From Escherichia coli (lineage in GTDB: Bacteria > Pseudomonadota > Gammaproteobacteria > Enterobacterales > Enterobacteriaceae): a stretch of DNA of 64,000 nucleotides. Where the stretch lies: NCBI RefSeq assembly GCF_001677475.2, contig NZ_CP015229.1; one strand, written 5' to 3'. Under the pieces are notes generated by a model. The model had not been told where the DNA came from. It was given only the letters and a program-made list of their open reading frames with translations, and searched no databases. Positions within the stretch are counted from its first letter, which is position 1; every line of letters begins with the position of its first letter. The translations under genes and the position numbers were made by a program. Below are positions 1-32,845 of this stretch, piece by piece.

Positions 1-200
1 TGTTTTTTGATCTCACCCGGTAAAGTCGCCTATCTTTTCAGCAACAAAACTTGATTAACATCAATTTTGGTATGACCAATGCACCATTCATGTTATTCTC
101 AATAGCGAAGAACATTTTCATTGCTGTAACCTGTTGTTAATTAAGAGCTATGTTAATAATCATTAATTAACAATTGGTTAATAAATTTAAGGGGGTCACG

Positions 201-1505
201 TTGACTACGCCATTGAAAAAAATTGTGATTGTCGGCGGCGGTGCTGGTGGGCTGGAAATGGCAACACAGCTGGGGCATAAGCTGGGACGCAAGAAAAAAG
301 CCAAAATTACGCTGGTCGATCGTAACCACAGCCACCTGTGGAAACCGCTGCTGCACGAAGTGGCGACTGGCTCGCTTGATGAAGGCGTCGATGCGTTGAG
401 CTATCTGGCACATGCGCGCAATCATGGTTTCCAGTTCCAGCTGGGTTCCGTCATTGATATTGATCGTGAAGCGAAAACAATCACTATTGCAGAACTGCGC
501 GACGAGAAAGGTGAACTGCTGGTTCCGGAACGTAAAATCGCCTATGACACCCTGGTAATGGCGCTGGGTAGCACCTCTAACGATTTCAATACGCCAGGTG
601 TCAAAGAGAACTGCATTTTCCTCGATAACCCGCACCAGGCGCGTCGCTTCCACCAGGAGATGCTGAATCTGTTCCTGAAATACTCCGCCAACCTGGGCGC
701 GAATGGCAAAGTGAACATTGCGATTGTCGGCGGCGGCGCGACGGGTGTAGAACTCTCCGCTGAATTGCACAACGCGGTCAAGCAACTGCATAGCTATGGT
801 TACAAAGGCCTGACCAACGAAGCCCTGAACGTAACGCTGGTAGAAGCGGGAGAACGTATTTTGCCTGCATTACCGCCACGTATCTCTGCTGCGGCCCACA
901 ACGAGCTAACGAAACTTGGCGTTCGCGTGCTGACGCAAACCATGGTCACCAGTGCTGATGAAGGCGGCCTGCACACTAAAGATGGCGAATATATTGAGGC
1001 TGATCTGATGGTATGGGCAGCCGGGATCAAAGCGCCAGACTTCCTGAAAGATATCGGTGGTCTTGAAACCAACCGTATCAACCAGCTGGTGGTGGAACCG
1101 ACGCTGCAAACCACCCGTGATCCAGACATTTACGCTATTGGCGACTGCGCGTCATGCCCGCGTCCGGAAGGGGGCTTTGTTCCGCCGCGAGCTCAGGCTG
1201 CACACCAGATGGCGACCTGCGCAATGAACAACATTCTGGCGCAGATGAACGGTAAGCCGCTGAAAAATTATCAGTATAAAGATCATGGTTCACTGGTATC
1301 GCTGTCGAACTTCTCCACCGTCGGTAGCCTGATGGGTAACCTGACGCGCGGCTCAATGATGATTGAAGGACGAATTGCGCGCTTTGTATATATCTCGCTA
1401 TACCGAATGCATCAGATTGCGCTGCATGGTTACTTTAAAACCGGATTAATGATGCTGGTGGGGAGTATTAACCGCGTTATCCGTCCACGTTTGAAGTTGC
1501 ATTAA
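201..1505 (+). CDS. ndh: NADH:quinone oxidoreductase II (type II NADH dehydrogenase)
   Basis: ORF 174..1505; N-terminal [12 protein letters not shown]ossmann motif; matches recalled E. coli Ndh. TTG start at 201 (MTTPLKK) is inferred. Confidence 0.9.
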
Positions 1506-1509
1506 TCGG

Positions 1510-1620
1510 CTTGTACTGGCGGATGCGGCGCAAACGCCTTATCCGCCCTGGACAAATGGTATGAGCGGTAGGCCTGATAAGACGCGTTAAGCGTCGCATC
1601 AGGCATTCCTTCAGACTCCT
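1510..1620. repeat. REP (repetitive extragenic palindromic) elements downstream of ndh
   Basis: Seen in sequence: GCCTGATAAGACGCG / GCATCAGGC and GGATGCGGCG motifs typical of E. coli REP units. Boundaries approximate. Confidence 0.5.
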
Positions 1621-1728
1621 CCGAATCCTTAAGTATTTCCAGCCATTCCCGCGCTTTTCATCTTCTGTCTGATAGCTGCTTTTCTCCTTCGCTTGCATGA
1701 TTGGCATAACTGCAAAGAAGGAGGTGTT

Positions 1729-2271
1729 CCCGTGAATAAATCAATGTTGGCGGGTATCGGGATTGGTGTCGCAGCTGCGCTGGGCGTAGCGGCAGTGGCC
1801 AGTCTGAACGTGTTTGAACGGGGCCCGCAATACGCTCAGGTTGTTTCTGCAACCCCAATCAAGGAAACGGTTAAAACACCGCGTCAGGAGTGTCGCAACG
1901 TCACAGTGACCCATCGTCGACCGGTGCAGGATGAAAATCGCATTACCGGGTCGGTGCTCGGCGCTGTTGCTGGCGGCGTGATAGGGCATCAGTTTGGTGG
2001 TGGTCGTGGTAAAGATGTCGCCACTGTTGTGGGGGCGCTGGGGGGGGGATATGCCGGTAACCAGATCCAGGGCTCTCTCCAGGAAAGCGATACTTACACG
2101 ACTACGCAACAGCGTTGTAAAACGGTGTATGACAAGTCAGAAAAAATGCTCGGTTATGATGTGACCTATAAGATTGGCGATCAGCAGGGCAAAATCCGCA
2201 TGGACCGCGATCCGGGTACGCAAATCCCACTAGATAGCAACGGGCAACTGATTTTGAATAACAAAGTATAA
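1729..2271 (+). CDS. ycfJ: Glycine-rich surface/periplasmic protein YcfJ
   Basis: ORF 1693..2271; sequence MNKSMLAGIGIGVAAALG with glycine-zipper region. GTG start at 1729 is inferred. Confidence 0.75.
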   Translation, partial: PVNKSMLAGIGIGVAAALGVAAVASLNVFERGPQYAQVVSATPIKETVKTPRQECRNVTVTHRRPVQDENRITGSVLGAVAGGVIGHQFGGGRGKDVATVVGALGGGYAGNQIQGSLQESDTYTTTQQRCKTVYDKSEKMLGYDVTYKIGDQQGKIRMDRDPGTQIPLDSNGQLILNNKV

Positions 2272-2292
2272 CAAGGCTGTACTCTGCAATTT

Positions 2293-2327
2293 AGCCCCTC
2301 ATTCGCTCAGGCTGAGGGGCTTTTTTT
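2293..2327. terminator. Bidirectional rho-independent terminator between ycfJ and comR
   Basis: Seen in sequence: hairpin AGCCCCTCA...TGAGGGGCT followed by T-run. Confidence 0.5.
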
Positions 2328-2332
2328 GCGAC

Positions 2333-2965
2333 TTATTTCACCAGTTCGGGCCATAAACGCAAAGTCGTTCCGGCAATCTGCATCAGTTTTTCCAGCGATG
2401 CACCTTCGCGTGCGCTGATCGACATCCCCTGAATAATACAATTAAGGAATTCTGCCAGATGTGTCACGTCACAGTGGGTCGGGATTTCCCCGCGCGCTTG
2501 TCGTTGACATAAAAACTGCTGCAAAGTGCGCTCTTGCATCGCATGGCGTGATTTCAACGTATTGGCGATATCTCCTGAATCCGGGGAGAGGGTGGTGCAG
2601 TTGTTGATCATGAAGCAGCCTGCCGGGGTGTCTTTGCTGGTAAAGCAGTTGGCGATGGCAGCAAAATAGTCAGCCAGCGCAGACTCCACGCTTTTCTCTT
2701 CACAAAACAGCTGTGCTTCATGCTTAGCGGCAAAACGATCGATATAGCGGTCGAGTACGGCGCGGAATAACCCCTCTTTGTTGGTAAATTCCGCGTATAG
2801 CGTGGGCGCTTTGGCTCCGGTCGCTTCGACGAGGTCCGCAAGAGAAGTCGCTTCATAACCATGCTGCCAGAACAATTTCATGGCCTTATCAAGCGCGGCA
2901 TCCCTGTCGAACACTTTTGGGCGGCCACGGCTTTTTTTTACACATTGTGTTGAGTCAGTTGCCAT
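2333..2965 (-). CDS. comR: TetR-family transcriptional repressor ComR (YcfQ)
   Basis: ORF 2333..3043; N-terminal TetR HTH (GRPKVFDRDAALDKAMKLFWQHGYEATSLADL). Start at MATDSTQ is inferred. Confidence 0.8.
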   Translation of the reverse strand: MATDSTQCVKKSRGRPKVFDRDAALDKAMKLFWQHGYEATSLADLVEATGAKAPTLYAEFTNKEGLFRAVLDRYIDRFAAKHEAQLFCEEKSVESALADYFAAIANCFTSKDTPAGCFMINNCTTLSPDSGDIANTLKSRHAMQERTLQQFLCQRQARGEIPTHCDVTHLAEFLNCIIQGMSISAREGASLEKLMQIAGTTLRLWPELVK

Positions 2966-3205
2966 GATGCCGTTGTACCTGGTGACTGTGAATGGAAGGT
3001 TATTATAAAAATAATCACCTCCGTTCACCAGTCCAGAAACCATAAAAATAATTGCTTTCTATTTAACTGAAATTTAAAGGTTTTTAAATTAATTAATGAT
3101 TGTTATAAAAAATATCTTGTATGTGATCCAGATCACATCTATCATTTAGTTATCGATCGTTAAGTAATTGCTTACGACGCCATTCATCTGCATAAGGCCA
3201 CTATT

Positions 3206-3463
3206 ATGAAAAACGTAAAAACCCTCATCGCTGCGGCGATTTTAAGCTCCATGTCATTTGCCAGCTTTGCGGCTGTCGAAGTTCAGTCAACGCCAGAAGG
3301 CCAACAAAAAGTCGGTACTATCAGTGCTAACGCGGGGACAAATCTGGGATCGCTGGAAGAGTAGCTGGCGCAAAAAGCGGATGAGATGGGCGCAAAATCT
3401 TTCCGTATTACTTCTGTAACCGGTCCGAATACCCTCCATGGAACAGCAGTAATTTATAAATAA
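3206..3463 (+). pseudogene. bhsA: bhsA (ycfR) stress/biofilm protein, interrupted by in-frame amber stop at codon 53
   Basis: Translation from ATG 3206 gives MKNVKTLIAAAILSSMSFASFAAVEVQSTPEGQQKVGTISANAGTNLGSLEE then TAG at 3362..3364. Downstream frame continues LAQKADEMGAKSFRITSVTGPNTLHGTAVIYK to TAA at 3461..3463, matching recalled 85-aa BhsA. Confidence 0.7.
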
Positions 3464-3544
3464 GCATTAACCCTCATTAATGCCTGCTACTGCTGATTTT
3501 TTCCCCGCGACATGCCGTGTCGCGGGGATTTTTTTATCCGGGCT

Positions 3545-4510
3545 TTACAGAGTTTGTGGGCTCACTTGATGACGGCGGACATCCACCGGCATCCCGGAAC
3601 GGACATCCATGACATGTTGCATCACTTCAGCGTCAGTTTGTGCTGCATCTTTAAATGATTGCATTGCGCTATTCAGCGTAATTGGCAGCAGCTGCGGATC
3701 GTCATCAATCTTCTCTGACAGCGGCTGATGTACTTCAACCAGACGCGCACCGTTTGGTTCGGCAGAGACTTTAATCGGGGTGTTGATGATATTTACTTTG
3801 GTACCTGGGGTGACCTGGCTAAAGAGTGTTTTGATATCGTCATCCCGCAGACGAATACAGCCAGAACTTACCCGCATGCCAATGCCGAAATCGGCGTTCG
3901 TACCGTGAAGCAAATAAACGCCGCCATAGGCCGCCAGGCGAATCGCATGATGGCCCATTGGGTTATCCGGTCCAGCCGGAACTACCGCAGGCAACTCAAT
4001 TCCCTGTGCCTTATACCGCGCGCGGATGTTTGCCGTTGGCGTCCAGGTTGGGTTTGCACGTTTGTCTGAAACGGTGGTCACCATTGTCGGTGTCAGCGTG
4101 TCACCACCCAACTGACCAATGCCGATGGGATACACGGTTACCGAATTTTTACCCGGCGGGTAGTAATAGAGACGCAGCTCCGCAATGTTGATCACAATGC
4201 CTTCGCGCGGCGCGTCTGGAAGTAGGGTTTGCAACGGGATCGTTAACACGCTACCCGCGCGCGGTACGTAAGGATCAACGCCGGGGTTAGCCTGTAACAG
4301 AGCGAGAAAGCCGACGTTATATTTTTTGGCGATGGCTTCCAGAGAACCACCGTCATTTTCCACCACATGAAATTTGTTTTCACCAACCAGACGACTGCCC
4401 GCTGGTGGCAGCGGCCAGGTGTTGGCTTTTGCCGGTAGCGCCAGCGCCACGGCAGCGGCGAACGTAAAAAACGTTAGCCAGCGAGAAAAACGCGTTTTGA
4501 TCATCACCAA
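3545..4510 (-). CDS. ldtC: L,D-transpeptidase LdtC (YcfS)
   Basis: ORF 321 aa with signal peptide and YkuD-type L,D-transpeptidase motifs (HGT...SSGCIRL). Confidence 0.8.
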   Translation of the reverse strand: MVMIKTRFSRWLTFFTFAAAVALALPAKANTWPLPPAGSRLVGENKFHVVENDGGSLEAIAKKYNVGFLALLQANPGVDPYVPRAGSVLTIPLQTLLPDAPREGIVINIAELRLYYYPPGKNSVTVYPIGIGQLGGDTLTPTMVTTVSDKRANPTWTPTANIRARYKAQGIELPAVVPAGPDNPMGHHAIRLAAYGGVYLLHGTNADFGIGMRVSSGCIRLRDDDIKTLFSQVTPGTKVNIINTPIKVSAEPNGARLVEVHQPLSEKIDDDPQLLPITLNSAMQSFKDAAQTDAEVMQHVMDVRSGMPVDVRRHQVSPQTL

Positions 4511-4650
4511 AAATCCATAATAAATATAAGGTTATTGTAATAAACAGATAAGCCTGAATTATGGATGGTGACAGTGTCGGATAGTGCAGGGAAGTGCAAA
4601 GAATTTGTAAATGTTGCAGATGGGGGCGCAGAAACGCCCCCGATTTACCA

Positions 4651-7600
4651 TTAAGCGATCGCGTTCTCTTCCAGTTCACGCATAAACTGGCGTACCCATT
4701 CGATACGCGTTTTCCGCTCACTCAAATCCTGAATAAATTTCAGACGCGTCGGACCATCAAGGCGGTAATGCTGCGGCTGTTTTTGCAGCAAACCAATCAA
4801 CCAGGCCGGATTAACGTGATTCTTCTCGGCAAATTCGATCACGCCGCCTTTCTCATTACCTTCCAGCTTCTTGATCCCCAGTTTCTGCGCTTGCTGGCGC
4901 AGACGGGCAATATCCAGCAGGGTACGCGCCGGATCCGGCAGCAAGCCGAAGCGATCGATAAGCTCGACTTTGATCTCTTCCAGTTCGTTTTCCGTTTTGG
5001 CGCTGGCAATACGTTTATAGAACGACAAACGCGTATTCACGTCAGGAATGAAATCATCTGGCAATAGCGACGGCATCCGCAGCTCGACTTCTGTTTGCTG
5101 GCTGGTGAGATCTTCCAGCGACGGCTCGCGTCCGGCTTTCAGCGCATCGACGGCGTTTTCCAGCAACTCCATATACAGCGAGAAACCGATGGTTTCCATT
5201 GAGCCGCTTTGTTCTTCGCCAAGCAGTTCACCCGCGCCGCGGATCTCCAGATCGTGCGTTGCCAGCGCAAAACCTGCACCGAGATCTTCCAGCGAGGCAA
5301 TCGCTTCAAGACGTTTTTGTGCATCGGTAGTCATCGCTTTTGGATGCGGCGTCAGCAGCCATGCATATGCCTGATGATGTGAACGTCCGACGCGACCGCG
5401 CAACTGGTGCAGCTGCGCCAGACCGAAGTGATCCGCGCGTTCAATGATAATGGTGTTGGCTGTCGGGATGTCGATCCCGGTTTCGATTATGGTGGTACAA
5501 ACCAGCACGTTGAAACGTTGATGATGGAAATCATTCATCACCCGTTCCAGTTCGCGCTCACGCATCTGCCCGTGACCGATGGCAATCCGTGCTTCAGGCA
5601 CCAGTTCTGCCAGCCGTTCGGCAGCTTTCTGGATGTTTTCCACATCATTGTAGAGATAATAAACCTGCCCCCCGCGCAAAATTTCACGCAGGATCGCCTC
5701 CCGGACCACCAGACTGTCATACTCACGGACGAAGGTTTTAACTGCCAGACGACGGGCGGGCGGCGTGGCGATAATCGACAGGTCACGCATTCCGCTCATA
5801 GCCATATTCAGCGTACGAGGGATCGGCGTTGCGGTAAGCGTCAGAATATCCACGTTCGCGCGCATCGCTTTAATGCGCTCTTTATGACGCACCCCGAAGC
5901 GGTGTTCTTCATCGACAATCAGCAGACCTAAATCTTTAAACTTGACGTCATTTTGCAGCAGTTTGTGCGTACCGATCAGAATATCGATTTTCCCTTCCGC
6001 CACTTCCGCAAGGATTTGCGTCTGCTCTTTGGCGCTGCGGAAACGGGAGATCATTTCGATACGTACCGGCCAGTTGGCGAAACGGTCGCGGAAGTTGTCG
6101 TAATGCTGCTGCGCGAGAAGGGTGGTAGGCACCAGCACCGCCACCTGCTTGTGGTTATCTACCGCCAGGAAAGCGGCGCGCATCGCCACTTCTGTTTTAC
6201 CAAAGCCAACATCGCCGCACACCAGACGATCCATTGCCAGCGGCTGGCTCATGTCGCTAAGCACCGCATTAATGGCCTGCGCCTGATCCGGCGTGGTTTC
6301 AAACGGGAAGCTGTCGCAGAACAACTGATACTGCTCACGATCGTGTTTAAACGCGAAGCCCTCTTTGGCGGCGCGTTGCGCGTAGATATCCAGCAATTCT
6401 GCCGCCACATCACGCACTTTTTCCGCCGCTTTCTGCCGCGCGCGTGACCACGCATCGCCGCCAAGTTTATGCAGCGGGGCATTTTCTTCCGCGCCACCTG
6501 CGTAACGGCTAATCAGATGCAGTGACGACACCGGAACATACAGTTTGGCGTCGTTGGCATAGGTGAGCATCAAGTACTCGCCAGTAATGCCGCCAGCTTC
6601 CAGCGTGGTCATTCCGGCATAGCGCCCGACGCCGTGCTCCAGATGGACCACCGGCTGACCAATATGCAGCTCCGCGAGGTTGCGGATCAGTGTATCGGGG
6701 TTGATGGTGCGGCGAGAGTCCTGACGACGGCGGGCAACGCGTTCACCGAGCAGATCGCTTTCGCAAATCAGCGCCAGGTTACGCACCGTATCGACAAAAC
6801 CATGTTCGGCAGCGCCAATCATCAGATAACGCCCACGGTCGCTGGCTTCATCAAGACGCATAATGCGTTGCGGAGCAATTTTAATTCGTGCGAGCAGTTC
6901 ACCCAGCGCTTCACGGCGACCTTCACTTTCTACCGAGAATACCACCGGACCGTCGAAAGTCTCGAGGAACTTACGCAGCGTATCCAGCGGCGCTTTTTGT
7001 TGTGCCTGAACGGCCAGGTCTGGCAGTTTCTGGAAACCTAAATTGGAATTCGCGGCTTTTGTCGGTAAATGTTCAGTTTTTAGTTGCACTCGGGGCCAGT
7101 TTTTCAGCTCTGAGAAGAGCTCGTCCACCCGCAGCCAGAGCGATTGTGGTGGCAACAGTGGGCGCATCGGATCGACGCCGCGATTCTCAAAACGCGCCAG
7201 CGTGTCAGCCTGGAAACGTTCGGCACTGTTTTCCAGATCGCCAGTATTCACCAGCAAGGTATTGGCAGGGAAATAACTGAACAGCGGCGGCAGTGGTTCG
7301 CTGAAGAACAATGGCTGCCAGTACTCGATCCCGGCAGGTAATGTGCCTTTACTCACTTGCTGGTAAATATGTTCCGGATCGCGCTTCACTTCGAAGGTAT
7401 CGCGCCACTGGCTGCGGAACAGTTCAATTGCCGCTTTATCGGTCGGAAATTCGTGTGCGGGCAGCAGATTGATCGCTTCTACTTCCTCCAGCGTGCGCTG
7501 GCTGTCGACGTCAAACACCCGCAGGCTGTCGATTTCATCATCAAAGAAATCAAGACGATAAGGCAGCTCACTCCCCATCGGGAAGAGATCCAGCAACGCG

Positions 7601-8097
7601 CCGCGCGTGGCGTATTCGCCGTGCTCCATCACCTGGTCAACATGGCGATAACCGGCGCTGTCCAGTTGGGTTCGTAATGCATCTCGTGACAGGCGCTGAC
7701 CTTTTTTCATCACCAGCGCATGGCCGTGGAGAAAACTGTGCGGGCAAACGCGCTGCATAAGCGTATTCACCGGAACAATCAGTACGCCACGCTGCATCGT
7801 CGGTAGCTGGTAAAGGGTGGAAAGGCGCGAGGAGATAATGTCCTGATGAGGCGAAAAACTGTCGTAAGGGAGGGTTTCCCAGTCCGCCAGATTCATCACC
7901 ATCTGATCGGTGAACTGGCTGATTTCATCATGCAAACGCAGAGCATTTTGCATATCTGGTGCAATGAGTACCACCGGACCGGCGTGACGTTCGGCAATTT
8001 CCGCCACCAGCGTCGCGCAGGCAGCGCCAGTTAACTCGCCCAGCAGACGCTGCTCACCCGCTTTGACGGGCAGCGTATAACGATATTGTTCAGGCAT
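4651..8097 (-). CDS. mfd: Transcription-repair coupling factor Mfd
   Basis: ORF 4651..8160; superfamily-2 helicase motifs (GDVGFGKTE, DEEH), UvrB-homology N-terminus. Start at MPEQYRYTLPV inferred from recalled Mfd. Confidence 0.9.
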   Translation of the reverse strand: MPEQYRYTLPVKAGEQRLLGELTGAACATLVAEIAERHAGPVVLIAPDMQNALRLHDEISQFTDQMVMNLADWETLPYDSFSPHQDIISSRLSTLYQLPTMQRGVLIVPVNTLMQRVCPHSFLHGHALVMKKGQRLSRDALRTQLDSAGYRHVDQVMEHGEYATRGALLDLFPMGSELPYRLDFFDDEIDSLRVFDVDSQRTLEEVEAINLLPAHEFPTDKAAIELFRSQWRDTFEVKRDPEHIYQQVSKGTLPAGIEYWQPLFFSEPLPPLFSYFPANTLLVNTGDLENSAERFQADTLARFENRGVDPMRPLLPPQSLWLRVDELFSELKNWPRVQLKTEHLPTKAANSNLGFQKLPDLAVQAQQKAPLDTLRKFLETFDGPVVFSVESEGRREALGELLARIKIAPQRIMRLDEASDRGRYLMIGAAEHGFVDTVRNLALICESDLLGERVARRRQDSRRTINPDTLIRNLAELHIGQPVVHLEHGVGRYAGMTTLEAGGITGEYLMLTYANDAKLYVPVSSLHLISRYAGGAEENAPLHKLGGDAWSRARQKAAEKVRDVAAELLDIYAQRAAKEGFAFKHDREQYQLFCDSFPFETTPDQAQAINAVLSDMSQPLAMDRLVCGDVGFGKTEVAMRAAFLAVDNHKQVAVLVPTTLLAQQHYDNFRDRFANWPVRIEMISRFRSAKEQTQILAEVAEGKIDILIGTHKLLQNDVKFKDLGLLIVDEEHRFGVRHKERIKAMRANVDILTLTATPIPRTLNMAMSGMRDLSIIATPPARRLAVKTFVREYDSLVVREAILREILRGGQVYYLYNDVENIQKAAERLAELVPEARIAIGHGQMRERELERVMNDFHHQRFNVLVCTTIIETGIDIPTANTIIIERADHFGLAQLHQLRGRVGRSHHQAYAWLLTPHPKAMTTDAQKRLEAIASLEDLGAGFALATHDLEIRGAGELLGEEQSGSMETIGFSLYMELLENAVDALKAGREPSLEDLTSQQTEVELRMPSLLPDDFIPDVNTRLSFYKRIASAKTENELEEIKVELIDRFGLLPDPARTLLDIARLRQQAQKLGIKKLEGNEKGGVIEFAEKNHVNPAWLIGLLQKQPQHYRLDGPTRLKFIQDLSERKTRIEWVRQFMRELEENAIA

Positions 8098-8224
8098 AAC
8101 GGTTGTCAGATTCTCGTTAGGATATGCCTCAACATATGGGGGCATATCTCTGATAAGCAATGCTGTTCATTATCCGTAATCGACATGGTTTAGCAAATTG
8201 AATCGCCCCGGCTGGGGCGATGGC

Positions 8225-9298
8225 TTAGCGGGAGTAACTGACGGCAGCGGGCAGTGAAGGCGGGGAGAACAACAGATCGCTGAATGCACGCTGTGAAAGT
8301 TTTCTTACCAGCAAGCCCGCAACAGTACAGATGAACAAACTGACAAAGGGATAAACCAGCAGGAGTGTCAGTTCGACTTGCGGCGACCAGCGTGCTGCGT
8401 TCATTTGCGCAAGCAGAGTTAAGCTGAATATTTCAACCAGAATGCGATGGGAGGTGTAGATAGCAATGGTGTTGGAGCCAATCACATTCAGCAGGCTGGT
8501 GGAGCGCATACCGAATCGTTGCTCGTATTGATAAAACAGCTTCATGATCACCACAATCGATACCAGCGACAACAGCAGCGAGATAGTAAACAACCAGGCA
8601 CCGACCGCCAGAACGGTCAGCAAAGAAGCCATCAGTAGATGGCGGCGCAACGGCACCTCTTTAACACAGGTCATTAATGTTGCGCCAAACCATGCACCAA
8701 GGCTGTAATAAGGCAAATTGCGGATCACACTGTTCATTCCCCACCACGGCGTGGGAACGAAATTAACCGCCACACTCATCAGTACAAACAAGGCGAATAG
8801 TGGCAGCGCCAGACGGCTAAAAATTTTACATACCACGAAATAGACAATTAACGCATACAGATACCACAAGCTGGTGCTGGCGGTGATCATCCCGTGCAGG
8901 AACTCACCGGTGGAATCGGCATAAGCGGCATTGGAGGCATTGCTTAAATCGCGCTCAGGTGCCAGCCACTGGTTCAGCACACTTAACGCCAGCCACTGCA
9001 CCACGCCCCAAAGCGCCAGCACCCAGAAGATGTTCCAGACCCGTTTATCAAGACAATTTCCCCACGGTACGCTGTCGATATAGCGGCGAATCAAATAGCC
9101 GGATATAAAGAAAAAAACCGGCATACGAAAGGGTGCAAGGTAAAGGTTGAAATAGATCCAGCATTTGCTCAGGACTTCCGATAACGGATGCTGAAAAGTG
9201 GTCATATGCGGATAAAAGGTAATGACCGAGTGATAAATCACCACCAGGCAAATACATAACCCTTTGATCTGGTTAATCCATAGCTCTTTTTGTTTCAT
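8225..9298 (-). CDS. ycfT: Inner-membrane acyltransferase-family protein YcfT
   Basis: 357-aa polytopic membrane ORF at the expected position between mfd and lolC. Confidence 0.75.
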   Translation of the reverse strand: MKQKELWINQIKGLCICLVVIYHSVITFYPHMTTFQHPLSEVLSKCWIYFNLYLAPFRMPVFFFISGYLIRRYIDSVPWGNCLDKRVWNIFWVLALWGVVQWLALSVLNQWLAPERDLSNASNAAYADSTGEFLHGMITASTSLWYLYALIVYFVVCKIFSRLALPLFALFVLMSVAVNFVPTPWWGMNSVIRNLPYYSLGAWFGATLMTCVKEVPLRRHLLMASLLTVLAVGAWLFTISLLLSLVSIVVIMKLFYQYEQRFGMRSTSLLNVIGSNTIAIYTSHRILVEIFSLTLLAQMNAARWSPQVELTLLLVYPFVSLFICTVAGLLVRKLSQRAFSDLLFSPPSLPAAVSYSR

Positions 9299-9448
9299 CA
9301 GGACAACACGCTCTTTTTTAATTTACATGCGGTTGATCCTGCGGGTTATGACCCTATGTGTAATGGGTATCTGTCTGTATTGGATGATTTTTCAGATTAA
9401 GATCAGGCGGCAAGATTGATGATAAAACATGGCACTTTAGCCGATTGA

Positions 9449-12697
<3,249 letters not shown>

Positions 12698-12725
12698 AGG
12701 CAGTACATTAAAACAAGGAGCGGCA

Positions 12726-13637
12726 ATGTATTACGGGTTTGATATTGGTGGAACAAAAATTGCGCTTGGCGTATTTGATAGCAGTCGGCAGTTGCAGTGG
12801 GAAAAGCGGGTGCCGACACCGCGTGACAGCTATGATGCTTTTTTAGATGCAGTATGCGAGCTGGTAGCCGAAGCCGATCAGCGTTTTGGTTGTAAAGGTT
12901 ATGTCGGCATCGGTATTCCGGGAATGCCGGAAACAGAAGATGGCACGCTGTATGCCGCCAATGTCCCCGCTGCCAGCGGTAAACCGCTGCGTGCCGACCT
13001 GAGCGCACGTCTTGAGCGCGATGTACGCCTTGATAACGATGCCAACTGTTTTGCCCTTTCAGAAGCCTGGGATGATGAATTTACCCAATATCCGCTGGTG
13101 ATGGGGTTAATTCTCGGCACCGGCGTTGGCGGTGGACTGGTGTTTAACGGTAAAGCGGTGACGGGTAAAAGCTATATTACCGGCGAGTTTGGTCATATGC
13201 GTCTGCCGGTCGATGCGTTAACCATGATGGGGCTTGATTTCCCATTACGCCGCTGCGGCTGTGGTCAGCATGGCTGCATTGAAAATTATCTGTCTGGTCG
13301 CGGTTTTGCGTGGCTGTATCAACACTATTATCATCAACCGTTGCAGGCTCCCGAAATTATTGCGCTTTATGATCAAGGCGATGAGCAGGCAAGGGCGCAC
13401 GTTGAGCGTTATCTGGATTTATTAGCGGTTTGTCTGGGAAATATCCTGACCATTGTTGACCCTGATTTGCTGGTCATTGGCGGTGGCTTATCGAATTTCC
13501 CGGCAATCACAACGCAACTGGCGGACAGGCTGCCTCGTCATCTCTTACCTGTAGCTCGTGTTCCGCGCATTGAACGCGCGCGCCACGGTGATGCGGGAGG
13601 AATGCGTGGTGCGGCTTTCCTACATCTAACCGATTAA
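12726..13637 (+). CDS. nagK: N-acetyl-D-glucosamine kinase NagK
   Basis: ORF 12666..13637; ROK-family motifs ([23 protein letters not shown] zinc site). Start at MYYGFD inferred. Confidence 0.85.
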
Positions 13638-13652
13638 ACAACAGAGGTTGCT

Positions 13653-14474
13653 ATGCTGTCGCGTCGGGGTCATCGGTTAAGTCGTTTTCGTAAAAATAAA
13701 CGCCGCCTGCGCGAGCGTTTGCGTCAGCGTATTTTTTTCAGAGATAAAGTGGTGCCGGAAGCAATGGAAAAACCAAGAGTACTCGTACTGACAGGGGCAG
13801 GGATTTCTGCGGAATCAGGTATTCGTACCTTTCGCGCCGCAGATGGCCTGTGGGAAGAACATCGGGTTGAAGATGTGGCAACGCCGGAAGGTTTCGATCG
13901 CGATCCTGAACTGGTGCAAGCGTTTTATAACGCCCGTCGTCGACAGCTGCAGCAGCCAGAAATTCAGCCTAACGCCGCGCATCTTGCGCTGGCTAAACTG
14001 CAAGACGCCCTCGGCGACCGCTTTTTGCTGGTGACGCAGAATATCGATAACCTGCATGAACGCGCAGGCAATACCAATGTGATTCATATGCATGGAGAAT
14101 TGCTGAAAGTACGTTGTGCGCAAAGCGGGCAGGTTCTCGACTGGACTGGTGATGTTACGCCAGAAGATAAATGTCATTGCTGCCAGTTTCCGGCTCCGCT
14201 GCGCCCGCACGTGGTGTGGTTTGGCGAAATGCCGCTTGACATGGATGAAATTTATATGGCACTGGCGATGGCGGATATTTTCATTGCCATTGGCACATCC
14301 GGGCATGTTTATCCGGCTGCCGGTTTTGTTCATGAAGCAAAATTGCATGGCGCGCACACCGTGGAACTCAATCTTGAGCCGAGCCAGGTTGGTAACGAAT
14401 TTGCCGAGAAATATTACGGCCCGGCAAGCCAGGTGGTGCCAGAGTTTGTTGAAAAGTTGCTGAAGGGATTATAA
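13653..14474 (+). CDS. cobB: NAD-dependent protein deacylase (sirtuin) CobB
   Basis: Sir2 motifs ([25 protein letters not shown], CxxC...CHCC). C-terminus ends ...EKLLKGL; the recalled KAGSIA tail sits in the +1 frame. Confidence 0.85.
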
Positions 14475-14484
14475 AGCAGGAAGC

Positions 14485-14605
14485 ATTGCCTGATGCGCTA
14501 CGCTTATCAGGCCTACAAGGGGACGCAATTAATTGAATTTGCGGGTTTTGTGGGCCGGATAAGGCGTTCGCGCCGCATCCGGCATAATACACGCGCATTT
14601 TACTG
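14485..14605. repeat. REP elements downstream of cobB
   Basis: Seen in sequence: GCCTGATGCGCTACGCTTATCAGGCCTAC and GCCGGATAAGGCGTTCGCGCCGCATCCGGCA, typical REP palindromes. Confidence 0.5.
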
Positions 14606-14611
14606 CCTCTT

Positions 14612-15400
14612 TTACCGTTTACTCGTCAATAACAACGCGGCAATAAACGTACAGACACCAATCAGCCCTGCCCAGAGTGGCGATATTCTGGTAATTGCAA
14701 AGCTATTATCGATATACAGGCATAAAGCCTGATAGCCCATATTGGCAACAGTCATCGCCACTGCAAATTTTAATGCATAAATAAAACGAGTCGTGTAGTA
14801 AAAGACCGAGGAAAATAAGATAAACGTCGCAGCCCAGGCGATAAAACCTAATGTGTTGGTACTGCCGGGGGGATCATTTTCATGCTGTTGTCCTGGATGC
14901 GGATAATACGTCAGTGGCGGCGTCGGTTGTTTTAATATCTGTACTTGTAGAACAGCCAATGCATTATTGATTCCCTGATACCATAGGCCAGCATGTAAAT
15001 AAGCCAGCGTGTGATTTTCTATCAGAAGGCCGAGATGTTTATCGTCCAGACCGCTTTCAACCTGGCCATTGGTGATCATAATTAACCGTGGTTCGCGGGT
15101 AGTAAATAGTAACAGAACACTTCCTTTTACATCACTCAATGAAGATGACGCATGCGCCAGCATCGCTTTACCATTTTGTCTGAGACTGGCTTCATTATTA
15201 ATGTCGGGTAAAACCACAATAAACGGTGCAACTCCGGTTTGTTGGCGAAAAAGCTCGGCTTTATGCGCGATCTCTTCAGCATCTGGTACAGTACCGGTAA
15301 CATCCGTAAAAAGTGTCTTCATTATTGGAATTAATGGTTTGCTGGCTGCTGTCAGAGGCAGGAGTATCAGTAAACTGAGCAGTATTATGATTTTTTTCAT
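14612..15400 (-). CDS. ycfZ: Inner-membrane protein YcfZ
   Basis: 262-aa ORF with signal/TM segments, in expected synteny. Confidence 0.7.
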
Positions 15401-15858
15401 GGGCGGGACTTCCGTTTCCTGCGAGATTTTTTGGTGGAGGGGAGAGTGATTATCAGACCGACACTACCGAAAATAATGCCTGCTATGCCAACAAAGCCCC
15501 ATTTAAAAAAATTAACCCAGGGATTGTTTATTTCGGCTTGTTCTGGATGCCCTGGCGGATAATAGACATTGACTCTGCCACCTTCGCTATCTTCATAAAA
15601 ATCACTACCGATACTCGAATTGAAAATTAGCGTGTAATCTGGCGTAGGGCGAAAGGCAACCACTGGATACCAGGAGCCATTATCACCGACGTCGTTTGAG
15701 TGATTGTTGTACCAAACGACATCAACAATGATTCCTTCTGTATGAACCGCGCTTTTGGTAAAAGTAAAATGGTAACAAAAGATAATTGCAGAAATAACGA
15801 GCAATATCAGACCGATACCGAGAAAAGCGTGGGATAACACTTTACTGTCCTGACTCAT
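15397..15858 (-). CDS. ymfA: Inner-membrane protein YmfA
   Basis: ORF 15397..15900; start at [10 protein letters not shown] inferred (153 aa). Confidence 0.7.
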
Positions 15859-15915
15859 TAGCCACATCCTTGCTAAATAAAAAACGGGCGGTAATACCAC
15901 CGCCCGTTTGCTGAA

Positions 15916-16962
15916 TTAACGTCCTGCTTTCAGCTTCTGATAATACTCTTCATAAATGCTGCTGGCTGCGCCAACGTCATTCTGCCATTCACCATTTTTA
16001 ATGGTTTCAGCATCCGGGTAGAGCGTTTTATCGTTCGCCACTTCCGGGCTTAACAGCTTACGCGCCGCAAGGTTTGGCGTTGGATAACCGATAGTTTCGG
16101 CAACCTGTTTTGCCACATCCGGGCGCAGCAGGAAGTTGATCAGTTTCAGCGCGCCTTCTTTGTTTTTGGCATTCGCCGGAATTGCCAGGCTGTCCATCCA
16201 GAAAATGCCGCCTTCTTTCGGCCACACGACGTCAATTGGTGTACCCGCCTGGCGTGCAACGAAAGCAGAACCGTTCCAGATCATGCCGAGGTTAACTTCG
16301 CCTTCCATGTACGGGTTAGCCGGGTTATCGGAGTTAAACGCTGCGACGTTTGGCATCAGTTTTTTCAGCTCGTTATATGCAGCTTCAATCTCTTTCGGAT
16401 CGGTGGTGTTACCGGAATAGCCCAGCTTACGCAGCGCCATCTGGAACACTTCACGGGCATCGTCGGTCAGCAGCAGGCTGCCTTTGTACTCAGGCTTCCA
16501 CAGATCGGCCCAGCTGGTAACGGATTTCGGATCCACCGCATCACCGTTAACGCCAATCGCCGTCGCACCCCAGATATACGGAATGGAGTAGTCGTTATTC
16601 GGGTCAAAAGGCTTGTTGAGCATGTCTGGATCGAGATTGCTGAAGTTCGTTAACTTCGACTTGTCGATCTTCTGGATCATCCCTTCTTTACGCATTTTAT
16701 CGACGTAATAGGTTGAAGGAACCACCAGGTCATAGGCACCGTCTTTGTACGTTTTCAGCTTGGCATACATGGTTTCGTTCGACTCGTAAGTCGAATAGAT
16801 AACCTTAATACCGGTTTCTTTGGTGAACTGTTCAAGCAGTCCTGGCGGCACGTACTCGGTCCAGTTGTAGAAATACAGCGTGTTGTTGTCATCGGCGTGA
16901 GCGGCGCTCATGCCCAGTGCCAGAGCACCCGCCGCGAGCAGGTGGCGTGACCATTTTTTCAT
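15916..16962 (-). CDS. potD: Spermidine/putrescine ABC transporter periplasmic binding protein PotD
   Basis: 348-aa ORF with signal peptide; solute-binding protein in the pot operon. Confidence 0.9.
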   Translation of the reverse strand: MKKWSRHLLAAGALALGMSAAHADDNNTLYFYNWTEYVPPGLLEQFTKETGIKVIYSTYESNETMYAKLKTYKDGAYDLVVPSTYYVDKMRKEGMIQKIDKSKLTNFSNLDPDMLNKPFDPNNDYSIPYIWGATAIGVNGDAVDPKSVTSWADLWKPEYKGSLLLTDDAREVFQMALRKLGYSGNTTDPKEIEAAYNELKKLMPNVAAFNSDNPANPYMEGEVNLGMIWNGSAFVARQAGTPIDVVWPKEGGIFWMDSLAIPANAKNKEGALKLINFLLRPDVAKQVAETIGYPTPNLAARKLLSPEVANDKTLYPDAETIKNGEWQNDVGAASSIYEEYYQKLKAGR

Positions 16963-17753
16963 TTAACGTCCCCTGTGTTACCTTTCGTTTTATCACGAGC
17001 AATAAGCTGGCTGGCAATAACCATCACCAGCGACAGCACCAGTAATATGGTTGCCAGCGCGTTAACTTCCGGCGATACGCCGACTTTGACCATCGAATAA
17101 ATTTTTAACGGCAGAATTTCATAACTTGGTCCGGTGACGAACGAAGAAACTACCACATCGTCCATCGACAGGGTAAAGCTTAACACCCAGCCCGCCGCTA
17201 CCGCTGGCATTGCCAGTGGCAGAATGATTTTTCGCAGAATGGTAAATTCGCTGGCACCGAGATCTTTCGCCGCTTCCAGCATTCGCACGTCAAAACCTTT
17301 CAGGCGCGAATACACTGTCACCACCACAAATGGCAGGCAGAAGGTGATATGCGAGAACAGCAGCGACCAGAAGCCAAGCTGAATACCCAGCAGCATAAAC
17401 AGCACCAGCAGCGAAATCGCCATCACGATATCTGGTGACATCATCACTACAAACAGCATTCCGCTAACGAACGGCTTACCACGAAAGCGATAACGGTACA
17501 GTGCAACTGCCGTCAGTGAACCGATAAGCGTAGCAAACGTCGCCGAAAACACCGCCATTGTTAGTGAATGCTGCGCTGCCTGTAACAGGCTGTCGTTGTT
17601 CATCAGCAGGCTATACCATTTGGTGGTAAAACCCTGCCAGTTGATGCCAAAGCGCGAGCTGTTAAAGGAGTTCACAATCAAAATAATGATTGGGATATAC
17701 AGGTACGCGTAGATAGCGGTCATAAAACCGCCGCGAAGCAGTCGACCGATCAT
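16959..17753 (-). CDS. potC: Spermidine/putrescine ABC transporter permease PotC
   Basis: 264-aa polytopic permease; start ATG overlaps the potB stop (ATGA). Confidence 0.9.
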   Translation of the reverse strand: MIGRLLRGGFMTAIYAYLYIPIIILIVNSFNSSRFGINWQGFTTKWYSLLMNNDSLLQAAQHSLTMAVFSATFATLIGSLTAVALYRYRFRGKPFVSGMLFVVMMSPDIVMAISLLVLFMLLGIQLGFWSLLFSHITFCLPFVVVTVYSRLKGFDVRMLEAAKDLGASEFTILRKIILPLAMPAVAAGWVLSFTLSMDDVVVSSFVTGPSYEILPLKIYSMVKVGVSPEVNALATILLVLSLVMVIASQLIARDKTKGNTGDVK

Positions 17754-29528: not shown

Positions 29529-30362
29529 GTGACTGAATTAACCAAAGAGCAATTAATCGAAGAAGCCAAATTAAAAATAGCGATTGCGAAATGCTACCCC
29601 AGTTCAGGGATGGCACGGGTAGAGGGCGAGTTATTCAAAATTGCACTGGCATCGCTGGAAGCAGAACCAATAGGTGCTTTCCACATTGTAGAACAGCAAG
29701 TTGACGGAACAAGTTACTATATCAAGGATGGGGAATGGCCTATTGATACTGGGATTATTGAAGTCTACGCCGCCTCACCGATGACGGTAGTGCTGAACGA
29801 TGTATCTGGACCTCTTGCTCTTGCTTACAAAGAGCTTACACCTGCGATTATGCGCAACCATATCGCTGTATTCGAACGATACGGAATAACCCCAAACGAT
29901 AGCATTACTACAATTCATGCGCTTCGAATTGCGCTGGATGGCATAGAGCGGAGCGACGCCATGCTTCATGGACGTCAGCCATGCCATCAAATTACCGCCT
30001 CAATGGCAAAAGCTATTGCGCTTAAACTTGGTGCCGAACTGAATAACGAAGAAGCAGAGATTTTCGCGGATGGGTATAACACCGCCATGCTTCATGCCGA
30101 AAACTTTCGGGAAAATAAGAATTCGTCAACCAATAATTTTCGGATAACCTCGGAAACGTCAACCAACTCTCCGGCAATCCCTGATGAGGTGTTGTCCGCA
30201 ATCCTGAAGGTCGCCAGGCTTCGTGCAGATTTCGATGCTTCTGAAGGTGACAGGCGAGGTATCGGTGGTTGTCTGGATGAGGCCGAGCAAGAACTTATCG
30301 TTACCATTAACAAATACGCCAGTCAGATCGCAGTAGAAGCGATACAGGGGGCGCACCAATGA
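29529..30362 (+). CDS. Hypothetical nin-region protein (277 aa)
   Basis: ORF only. Confidence 0.35.
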   Translation: MTELTKEQLIEEAKLKIAIAKCYPSSGMARVEGELFKIALASLEAEPIGAFHIVEQQVDGTSYYIKDGEWPIDTGIIEVYAASPMTVVLNDVSGPLALAYKELTPAIMRNHIAVFERYGITPNDSITTIHALRIALDGIERSDAMLHGRQPCHQITASMAKAIALKLGAELNNEEAEIFADGYNTAMLHAENFRENKNSSTNNFRITSETSTNSPAIPDEVLSAILKVARLRADFDASEGDRRGIGGCLDEAEQELIVTINKYASQIAVEAIQGAHQ

Positions 30363-30470
30363 GCCGGCCCGATGCATTTGCAGGCGTTGCTATAGCTATT
30401 GCTTTTCCAGTATATGTTATTTGTCGGTGGGGGTAAAAACGTTCGCCGGAATTCACACCAAGGGAGGGAA

Positions 30471-30575
30471 TATGTCGGATGATATTTCACTGGTAATGGA
30501 AGGCGCTCTGGCTGTTATTGCTGTTGTGGGTGTTTACTGCCTGGTTGTGTTTTTGATGGATCGCCTGGGGAACTG
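30471..30575 (+). CDS. Putative small hydrophobic peptide (34 aa)
   Basis: Hand translation: MSDDISLVMEGALAVIAVVGVYCLVVFLMDRLGN, single TM-like peptide; not in ORF track (<60 aa). Confidence 0.3.
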
Positions 30576-30763
30576 AATTCATTCCGTATGGGAATTCCCA
30601 TATCGGGCAAAAACGGTTTGCTGTAAAGCGAGAGTTAAGTAGAATTGCTGCGGGTGCTTGAGGCTATCTGCCTCGGGCATGCCGCCGTAAGGCAGACAGA
30701 GAAAAGCCCCAGTTAACATTACGCGTCCTGCAAGACGCTTAACATTAATCTGAGGCCATATCT

Positions 30764-30976
30764 ATGACTTGCACACGTAGGTTAGCCTCTTACGTGCCGA
30801 AAGGCAAGGAGAAGCAGGCTATGAAGCAGCAAAAGGCGATGTTAATCGCCCTGATCGTCATCTGTTTAACCGTTATAGTGACGGCACTGGTAACGAGGAA
30901 AGACCTCTGCGAGGTACGAATCCGAACCGGCCAGACGGAGGTCGCTGTCTTCACAGCTTACGAACCTGAGGAGTAA
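30764..30976 (+). CDS. mok: Mok-like in-frame N-terminal extension reading frame of the hok toxin gene
   Basis: 70-aa ORF MTCTRRLASYVPKGKEKQAMKQQK... containing the hok frame, as recalled for chromosomal mokC/hokC. Confidence 0.5.
   Translation: MTCTRRLASYVPKGKEKQAMKQQKAMLIALIVICLTVIVTALVTRKDLCEVRIRTGQTEVAVFTAYEPEE
30821..30976 (+). CDS. hok: Hok/Gef-family type I toxin
   Basis: MKQQKAMLIALIVICLTVIVTALVTRKDLCEVRIRTGQTEVAVFTAYEPEE, near-identical in pattern to recalled Gef/HokC. Confidence 0.8.
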   Translation: MKQQKAMLIALIVICLTVIVTALVTRKDLCEVRIRTGQTEVAVFTAYEPEE

Positions 30977-31044
30977 GAGACCTGGCGGGGGAGAAATCCC
31001 TCGCCACCTCTGATGTGTCAGGCTTCCTCAACGCACCCGCACTT

Positions 31045-31073
31045 AACCCGCTTCGGCGGGTTTTGTTTTTTCT
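31045..31073 (+). terminator. Rho-independent terminator downstream of hok
   Basis: Seen in sequence: hairpin CCCGCTTCGGCGGG followed by T-run. Confidence 0.45.
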
Positions 31074-31140
31074 GTGCATTCTGGTTTACAATTCGCACGC
31101 CAGCCTGAACAACTGGCACCTGCTGCGCCAGCAGAGACAA

Positions 31141-31422
31141 CCGATGGCGCACGATACCAAATTACACAATTCTGATGATTCTGCCGTTTTTGCCAGCAGG
31201 CACGGGCTGCGTTCTCACGCATTCAAATATGACTGGTATCAGCACGATCCCTGCACTGAAGAACAGGCCGAATGGCTGATTCATAACTACCGCAGACGTG
31301 GGTATGAGTTTAAGAAAGCCCTCAGTCTCGATTATCGTCACTGGATAATCTACGTCAGACTCCCTTATTCCGAACGCCCGCCGCGTCCATCCCGCACATT
31401 CCAGCAACGGATCTGGAGGTAA
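31141..31422 (+). CDS. Hypothetical protein (about 92 aa from internal Met of ORF 31015..31422)
   Basis: ORF only; start uncertain. Confidence 0.3.
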   Translation, partial: PMAHDTKLHNSDDSAVFASRHGLRSHAFKYDWYQHDPCTEEQAEWLIHNYRRRGYEFKKALSLDYRHWIIYVRLPYSERPPRPSRTFQQRIWR

Positions 31423-31423
31423 C

Positions 31424-32473
31424 GTGCGGGTATTACTTCGACCTGTTCCGGTGCCGGAACTCGGGCTGGTGGTCCTTAAGCCGGGCCGTGAATCCATGCA
31501 GGTATTTCATAACCCTCGAGTGCTGGTGGAGCCGGAACCGAAAAGCATGCGCGGTCTGCCGTCCGGAGTTGTTCCTGCCGTTCGCCAGCCGCTGGCGGAA
31601 GATAAATCATTGCTGCCATTTTTCAGCGACGAACGGGTGATTCGTGCTGCCGGCGGCGCTGGTGCACTGTCTGACTGGCTCCTGCGTCATGTTAAATCCT
31701 GCCAGTGGCCTCATGGTGACTACCATCACAGTGAAACCGTCATACATCGTTACGGTACCGACGCGATGGTGTTGTGCTGGCACTGCGACAACCAGCTGCG
31801 TGACCAGACCTCAGAATCACTTGAGCAACTTGCTCAACAAAACCTGACAGCATGGATGATTGACGTCATCCGTCACGCAATAAGCGGTGCGCAGGAGCGG
31901 GAATTATCGCTGGCTGAATTATCCTGGTGGGCTGTCTGCAATCAGGTGGCGGACGCACTACCGGAGGTAGTATTACGTCGTTCTCTGGGGTTACGTGCGG
32001 AAAAAATTCGCTCGGTGTACCGCGAAAGCGACATCATACCGGGAGAGCAGACAGCCACCAGCATACTGAAGCAGCGCACAAAAAATATTGTGCTATCGCC
32101 TCACGTCCACCAGCAACAGAACTCACCGCAGGAAAAGGCGGTTGTCAGCATTGCTGTTGATCCGGAGTCTCCGGAATCTTTCATGAAGCGACCTAAACGT
32201 CGCCGTTGGGTAAATGAGAAATACACTCGCTGGGTAAAGACACAGCCGTGTGCGTGTTGTGGTCAACCAGCCGACGATCCCCATCACCTGATTGGTCATG
32301 GTCAGGGCGGAATGGGAACAAAATCCCACGATATTTTCACGCTACCGCTGTATCGGGAGCATCACAACGAGCTTCATGCGGATCCGCTGGCGTTCGAAGA
32401 AAAGCATGGTTCCCAGATTGATTTAATTTTTCGTTTTCTTGATCGCGCCTTTGCAACCGGCGTGCTCGGGTAA
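31424..32473 (+). CDS. DUF968-like phage protein with C-terminal Cys/His cluster
   Basis: 349-aa ORF; C-terminal CACCGQPADDPHHLIGHGQGGMGTKSHD...REHHNELH resembles the DUF968 family found upstream of rusA/Q. Family assignment from memory. Confidence 0.45.
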   Translation: MRVLLRPVPVPELGLVVLKPGRESMQVFHNPRVLVEPEPKSMRGLPSGVVPAVRQPLAEDKSLLPFFSDERVIRAAGGAGALSDWLLRHVKSCQWPHGDYHHSETVIHRYGTDAMVLCWHCDNQLRDQTSESLEQLAQQNLTAWMIDVIRHAISGAQERELSLAELSWWAVCNQVADALPEVVLRRSLGLRAEKIRSVYRESDIIPGEQTATSILKQRTKNIVLSPHVHQQQNSPQEKAVVSIAVDPESPESFMKRPKRRRWVNEKYTRWVKTQPCACCGQPADDPHHLIGHGQGGMGTKSHDIFTLPLYREHHNELHADPLAFEEKHGSQIDLIFRFLDRAFATGVLG

Positions 32474-32485
32474 AAGAGGTTACTG

Positions 32486-32845
32486 ATGCGTATAGAATTT
32501 GTTTTGCCTTACCCGCCGACGGTGAACACCTACTGGCGACGCCGTGGCAGCACGTATTTTATATCGGAAGCCGGTAAGCGTTATCGCCGTGATGTGGCAC
32601 TTATTGTTCGCCAGCAGCGGCTGAAATTAAATCTGTCCGGAAGGCTGGCGATAAAGGTTATCACAGAGCCGCCGGATAAGCGCCGTCGTGATCTGGACAA
32701 TATCCTGAAAGCACCGCTGGATGCGCTGACGCATGCGGGGCTTCTCATAGACGACGAGCAGTTTGATGAAATCAATATTGTGCGCGGTCTGCCTGTTCCT
32801 GGTGGGCGGCTGGGGATAAAAATCACAGAGCTGGAGTGCGCATGA
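32486..32845 (+). CDS. rusA: Holliday-junction resolvase RusA
   Basis: 119-aa ORF aligning by eye with E. coli RusA (PYPPTVNTYWRRRG, RRRDLDN, GRL...ITE). Confidence 0.8.
   Translation: MRIEFVLPYPPTVNTYWRRRGSTYFISEAGKRYRRDVALIVRQQRLKLNLSGRLAIKVITEPPDKRRRDLDNILKAPLDALTHAGLLIDDEQFDEINIVRGLPVPGGRLGIKITELECA

Follow-up and report, generated by a model that had tools for sequence, protein, structure and literature searches.

The closest described counterparts of the cobB gene studied here are those of Salmonella enterica and of Escherichia coli K-12. According to the work of Tucker and Escalante-Semerena (2010), insofar as it is recounted in PMC10965786 and PMC8603916, S. enterica CobB is a protein of 273 residues with a basic N-terminal extension and an internal methionine at position 38. 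Salmonella produces a long form, CobBL (273 aa), and a short form, CobBS (236 aa, residues 38-273), both of which are functional deacetylases, and two CobB isoforms have also been reported for E. coli (PMC10965786; PMC8603916). The CobB encoded in the window, by which we mean the whole 64,000-nucleotide stretch of E. coli DNA analysed here (NCBI RefSeq assembly GCF_001677475.2, contig NZ_CP015229.1), has the same length, the same type of extension and the same internal methionine. Two Salmonella loci that we retrieved likewise end in ...LLKGL* and encode proteins 89% identical to that of the window; they differ from it in being orthologues from another genus, and their downstream non-coding sequence is unrelated, without the TTATAAAGC...REP arrangement. 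The CobB of K-12 (279 aa, WP_000952737.1; structures 1S5P and 6RXJ) is encoded, like that of the window, between nagK and ycfZ and is identical to it at 270 of the first 273 residues, but the K-12 gene lacks the T of the TAA stop codon, carries an additional KAGSIA at the C-terminus and terminates at a TGA lying within a REP element. Further counterparts are the E. coli alleles listed in RefSeq as WP_000952736.1 and WP_000952746.1, which share the stop codon, the length and the flanking REP with the window and are set apart from it by three or four amino acid differences and a DNA identity of 93.5-94.5%. The enterobacterial REP/BIME sequences themselves are imperfect palindromes of ~29-34 nt with the pattern GCC(G/T)GATGCG...CTTATC(A/C)GGCCTAC, extragenic and present in many copies per genome. 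The pair downstream of cobB in the window conforms to this description; its first copy has a short loop and is otherwise unexceptional.

In the window, cobB (long isoform, an NAD+-dependent protein deacylase of the sirtuin type) occupies positions 13653-14474 on the plus strand, as given by the open reading frame listing and by a match to an NCBIfam model. The match is to the equivalog NF001755, with a score of 595.5 bits (cut-off 318), and places residues 1-272 on model positions 1-272 of 278, and the record for an identical protein carries Pfam PF02146 (SIR2). With site numbering after PMC10965786, the catalytic H147 is present, as are the zinc-binding cysteines C155 and C174, the HMHG motif, an NAD+-binding motif starting at residue 48 and TQNID at 128. 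The reading frame encodes 273 amino acids and a stop, with the C-terminus ...EKLLKGL*. The internal ATG at 13764-13766 (+), in the context ...PEAMEKPRV, encodes Met38 and would be the start of a short isoform spanning residues 38-273; by analogy with Salmonella, this start is probably used for a short CobB in this organism as well.

The earlier note had described this gene as ending ...EKLLKGL*, with KAGSIA, taken there as the expected ending, readable in the +1 frame directly afterwards, and had attributed this to one extra T near 14467, a 1-bp insertion that would cut off the last six residues. The description is accurate on both counts. The frame of 273 codons closes with a TAA at 14472-14474 (+), placed by alignment of the window with K-12, S88 and an O158:H23 strain, and K-A-G-S-I-A-stop can be read by translation in the +1 frame at 14473-14493 (+), the stretch that aligns with K-12 codons 274-279 plus stop. 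Alignment to K-12 cobB, run with the K-12 derivative DH1, established that the reference does not carry the same sequence. DH1 cobB is annotated as 840 nt encoding 279 aa and ending in KGLKAGSIA, and the sole local length difference between it and the window is one T in the DNA alignment, in which TTATAAAGCAGG of the window is aligned to TTA-AAAGCGGG of K-12. The stop site thus reads TTATAAAG in the window and TTAAAAG in K-12. The TAA begins with the base that is absent from the K-12 lineage, T at position 14472, so the window does have one T more than K-12, but 5 nt away from the place that had been proposed. The K-12 tail codons and stop match window positions 14473-14493 at 20 of 21 bases, a near-identity that marks the K-12-like +1 frame as homologous and not a chance resemblance.

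A difference from K-12 is not the same thing as a mutation in the query, because a reference strain can itself be derived. We therefore turn to the 3' end of cobB in other species. One genome per bacterial species (GTDB representatives) was scanned for CobB relatives, and 3' ends were taken from the best 80 loci, a set that does not contain the E. coli type strain, E. fergusonii or S. enterica subsp. enterica. In all 80 of these loci, which are from Enterobacteriaceae and cover Citrobacter, S. enterica subsp. arizonae and diarizonae, Enterobacter, Kosakonia, Cedecea, Buttiauxella and other genera, translation stops at KGL or no more than three codons from it. The protein is exactly 273 aa long in 69 of these best 80 loci from species representatives, and it ends in GL in 76. 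TTATAAA occupies the homologous position in each of the six Escherichia representatives, E. albertii and E. whittamii among them, and the K-12 arrangement was found in none of the best 80 species-representative loci. By parsimony, the absence of the K-12 arrangement from these outgroups implies that the T is ancestral and that K-12 has undergone a 1-bp deletion. KAGSIA as the expected ending of CobB is thus an artefact of taking K-12 as the norm. The window protein is indeed six residues shorter than that of K-12, but the direction of change proposed in the earlier note was wrong, since with the T ancestral nothing has been inserted and nothing truncated.

A survey of the two forms within E. 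coli covered 5,426 complete genomes and used megablast with 28-mer seeds. The queries, 54-55 nt in length, extended no further than 27 nt to the left or right of the site; a 28-mer seed could therefore not be placed without spanning the indel. The query representing the form with the T as found in the window matched in 3,279 of the 5,426 genomes, among them O157:H7, O104:H4, O103:H2 and ST131 strains; identity was 100% in 1,832 of these, 95-99% in 332 and 90-95% in 1,115. (In five of the 3,279 cases the matching record is labelled as a plasmid; these records may be chromosomal pieces under a wrong label.) A second query for a T-form haplotype, GGC...GCG, matched in 702 of the 5,426 genomes, 130 of them through exact matches that were unable to seed with the window query. 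With both queries combined, carriers of the T form number a minimum of 3,409 (63%) and a maximum of 3,718 among the 5,426 genomes, S88 being one of them, and the deletion form of K-12 is found in at least 1,708 (31%), including K-12, BL21-type strains, DH10B and MC1061. Some 309 of the 5,426 genomes fall into neither class because nearby SNPs block the 28-mer seeds. Allele frequencies were also estimated from how long the match to a 181-nt query was, an approach that was dropped because these lengths are confounded by another indel, in the REP region downstream; in strain F9792, for instance, the match to that query reaches 180 nt although the T form is present.

These counts bear directly on the alternative that a recent 1-bp insertion, or an error of sequencing or assembly, shortens CobB by six residues in this genome. 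Such an event would account for the one T in excess of K-12 and for a K-12 tail that is readable in the next frame. It would leave unexplained why no fewer than 63% of complete E. coli genomes, and all the Escherichia outgroups retrieved, have the same T, and why other genera of the Enterobacteriaceae also stop at KGL or within three codons of it. The stop site contains no error-prone homopolymer run, and a contig of the NCBI assembly GCA_019141265.1 is 100% identical to window positions 10653-17474 (6.8 kb) and encodes exactly the window CobB protein. Since this contig matches exactly and the 55 nt spanning the site are shared at 100% identity by 1,832 complete E. coli genomes, sequencing error is rejected, and we consider a recent insertion or error to be extremely improbable.

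The preferred reading, that the 3' end of cobB in the window is ordinary and ancestral, with a full-length 273-aa CobB closed by its native TAA and an apparent frameshift that exists only relative to K-12, we regard as close to certain, and the analyses yielded no evidence contradicting an ancestral stop. From parsimony and from the diversity of haplotypes we infer its polarity, with the T ancestral and K-12 derived. Of the 1,708 deletion-form genomes, 1,697 are identical across 54 nt, while the flanking sequence of the T form falls into several diverged haplotypes. A neighbor-joining tree built from the first 819 nt of cobB groups the three fetched deletion-form genes in a tight clade inside E. 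coli. A near-invariant haplotype and a nested clade fit a single, fairly recent deletion. On this reading, the T of the TAA was deleted in the lineage of K-12, BL21 and DH10B, turning TTATAAAG into TTAAAAG, and translation there runs through six codons (KAGSIA) of former 3'-untranslated sequence before halting at the TGA of the REP.

The annotation and the protein comparisons agree with a complete C-terminus in the window. S88, a strain of phylogroup B2, and the O158:H23 strain both have TTATAAAG, and RefSeq annotates their cobB as intact (822 nt, 273 aa). The RefSeq 822-nt genes for WP_000952736.1 and WP_000952746.1 are described as intact Sir2 family NAD+-dependent deacetylases and carry no pseudogene flag. 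CobB of 273 aa stands in RefSeq under several accessions, and the window gene, whose product ends where its orthologues end, is not a pseudogene, its frame being undisturbed when measured against the ancestral and majority form of the gene. Alignment to the PDB chains 1S5P and 6RXJ reaches L273, beyond which the deposited chains have one and six further residues, respectively. Residues 274-279 of K-12 CobB are unlikely to be functionally important, because they are specific to one lineage, while most E. coli and the other Enterobacteriaceae lack them; this is relevant to the design of constructs and to the interpretation of structures. On the available evidence, namely sequence conservation and the published 273-aa protein of Salmonella, the window CobB is probably a functional deacetylase.

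Apart from the tail, three residues separate the window protein from that of K-12: A156, D196 and A205, which in K-12 are S, G and S, respectively. Codon 196 (14238-14240) encodes Asp in the window; of the 273-aa orthologues from other species, 67 in number, 65 have Gly at this position and two have Glu, and it is Gly in all E. coli CobB sequences compared. The exact window protein with D196 is present in many public assemblies (49 index blocks) and is therefore an established allele.

Downstream of the stop codon, the window sequence at 14473-14493 is untranslated and non-coding. In genomes of the T form this stretch is variable, with AAAA in S88, AAGA in ETEC4067 and ATCAGGAGTA in the locus L004; these changes would alter the peptide read in the K-12 frame, which is the pattern expected of non-coding sequence. 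The first REP element, GCCTGATGCGCTACGCTTATCAGGCCTAC, is an imperfect palindrome at 14488-14516 (+), recognised from its repeat matches and the predicted fold, and is separated from the TAA by 13 nt. The K-12 frame crosses these 13 nt together with GCC (Ala279) and stops at a TGA formed by REP bases 4-6, so that the last K-12 codon and the stop are the first six bases of the REP. The 181-nt query, which extends over this REP, has a per-genome median of 15 matching places in E. coli, and its positions 108-139 (window 14487-14518) are matched at 100% at an unrelated genomic site. A second REP, inverted, lies at 14550-14583 (-) and has one mismatch to the REP consensus pattern. Inverted repeats (I1-I3) were detected across the two elements, and the predicted fold of 14475-14600, in which the two REPs pair, has an energy of -50.7 kcal/mol (z = -3.96 relative to shuffled sequences). 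The two REPs form a BIME-like pair between cobB and the convergent ycfZ, which encodes a TPM domain protein at 14612-15400 (-) according to the open reading frame listing and the RefSeq annotation of homologous E. coli loci. Against Rfam, the stretch 13400-14800 yielded sub-threshold matches only, all over the REP pair, with naRNA4, a REP-derived family, over the second REP; a scan of 14400-14700 for terminators and promoters found nothing relevant. A 76-aa antisense open reading frame at 14368-14598 (-) extends across the 3' end of cobB and both REPs; it almost certainly arises from the palindromes rather than being a gene. A further REP-like palindrome pair is located at 1518-1608, where 1568-1604 (-) matches the consensus pattern perfectly.

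The position of the two stop codons relative to the first REP raises a second alternative, in which the significance of the single base is regulatory. Relocation of the stop into the REP in K-12 would alter REP-dependent ribosome stalling or the stability of the mRNA 3' end and would make CobB dosage dependent on lineage, an effect of the tail itself being optional to this account. The stable fold predicted for the REP pair is in keeping with this idea, as is the contrast between a stop 13 nt ahead of the REP in the window and one inside it in K-12. Furthermore, a REP located closer than 16 nt to a stop codon reportedly reduces translation of the gene that precedes it (Liang, Rudd and Deutscher 2015, as far as this work is represented in PMC12306157). 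However, both alleles fall within the reported 15-nt range, so that the rule, in the form in which that source relays it, predicts no difference between them, and the tail sequence varies freely among genomes of the T form. We accordingly judge a regulatory consequence of this kind to be quite improbable. If a stop within the REP did change stalling or stability, about one third of E. coli strains, laboratory workhorses included, would set their CobB levels differently, protein acetylation would differ as well, and CobB work based on K-12 would describe a derived state. That the KAGSIA tail of K-12 is a young coding extension drawn from 3'-untranslated and REP sequence belongs to the preferred reading; the further step, in which CobB levels are shifted relative to the ancestral form, we consider improbable. 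The reading that we retain is the one in which the window has kept the native stop of cobB.

Lastly, several features of the surrounding window were noted. The segment nagK-cobB-ycfZ-ymfA-potD (11000-17000) is unusually diverged, with a best identity of 96.8% among the 5,426 genomes as against 98.4% for positions 1-11000, and the DNA identity of window cobB to K-12 cobB is 95.2%. In the cobB tree the window groups with E. coli strain E69, which is the representative of a separate GTDB species, outside the main E. coli cluster. The divergence of 11000-17000 points either to a rare Escherichia lineage or to an imported segment. In E. coli AR_0369 (NZ_CP027140.1), potD follows directly after cobB and ycfZ-ymfA are absent, unlike in the window and in the other strains. 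The region at ~30000-42000 is prophage-like, with genes for a terminase, antitermination protein Q, a lysozyme and DUF968 and DUF1133 proteins, and E. coli genomes cover it in a patchy, mosaic fashion, with a best match of 72% coverage at 98.8% identity.
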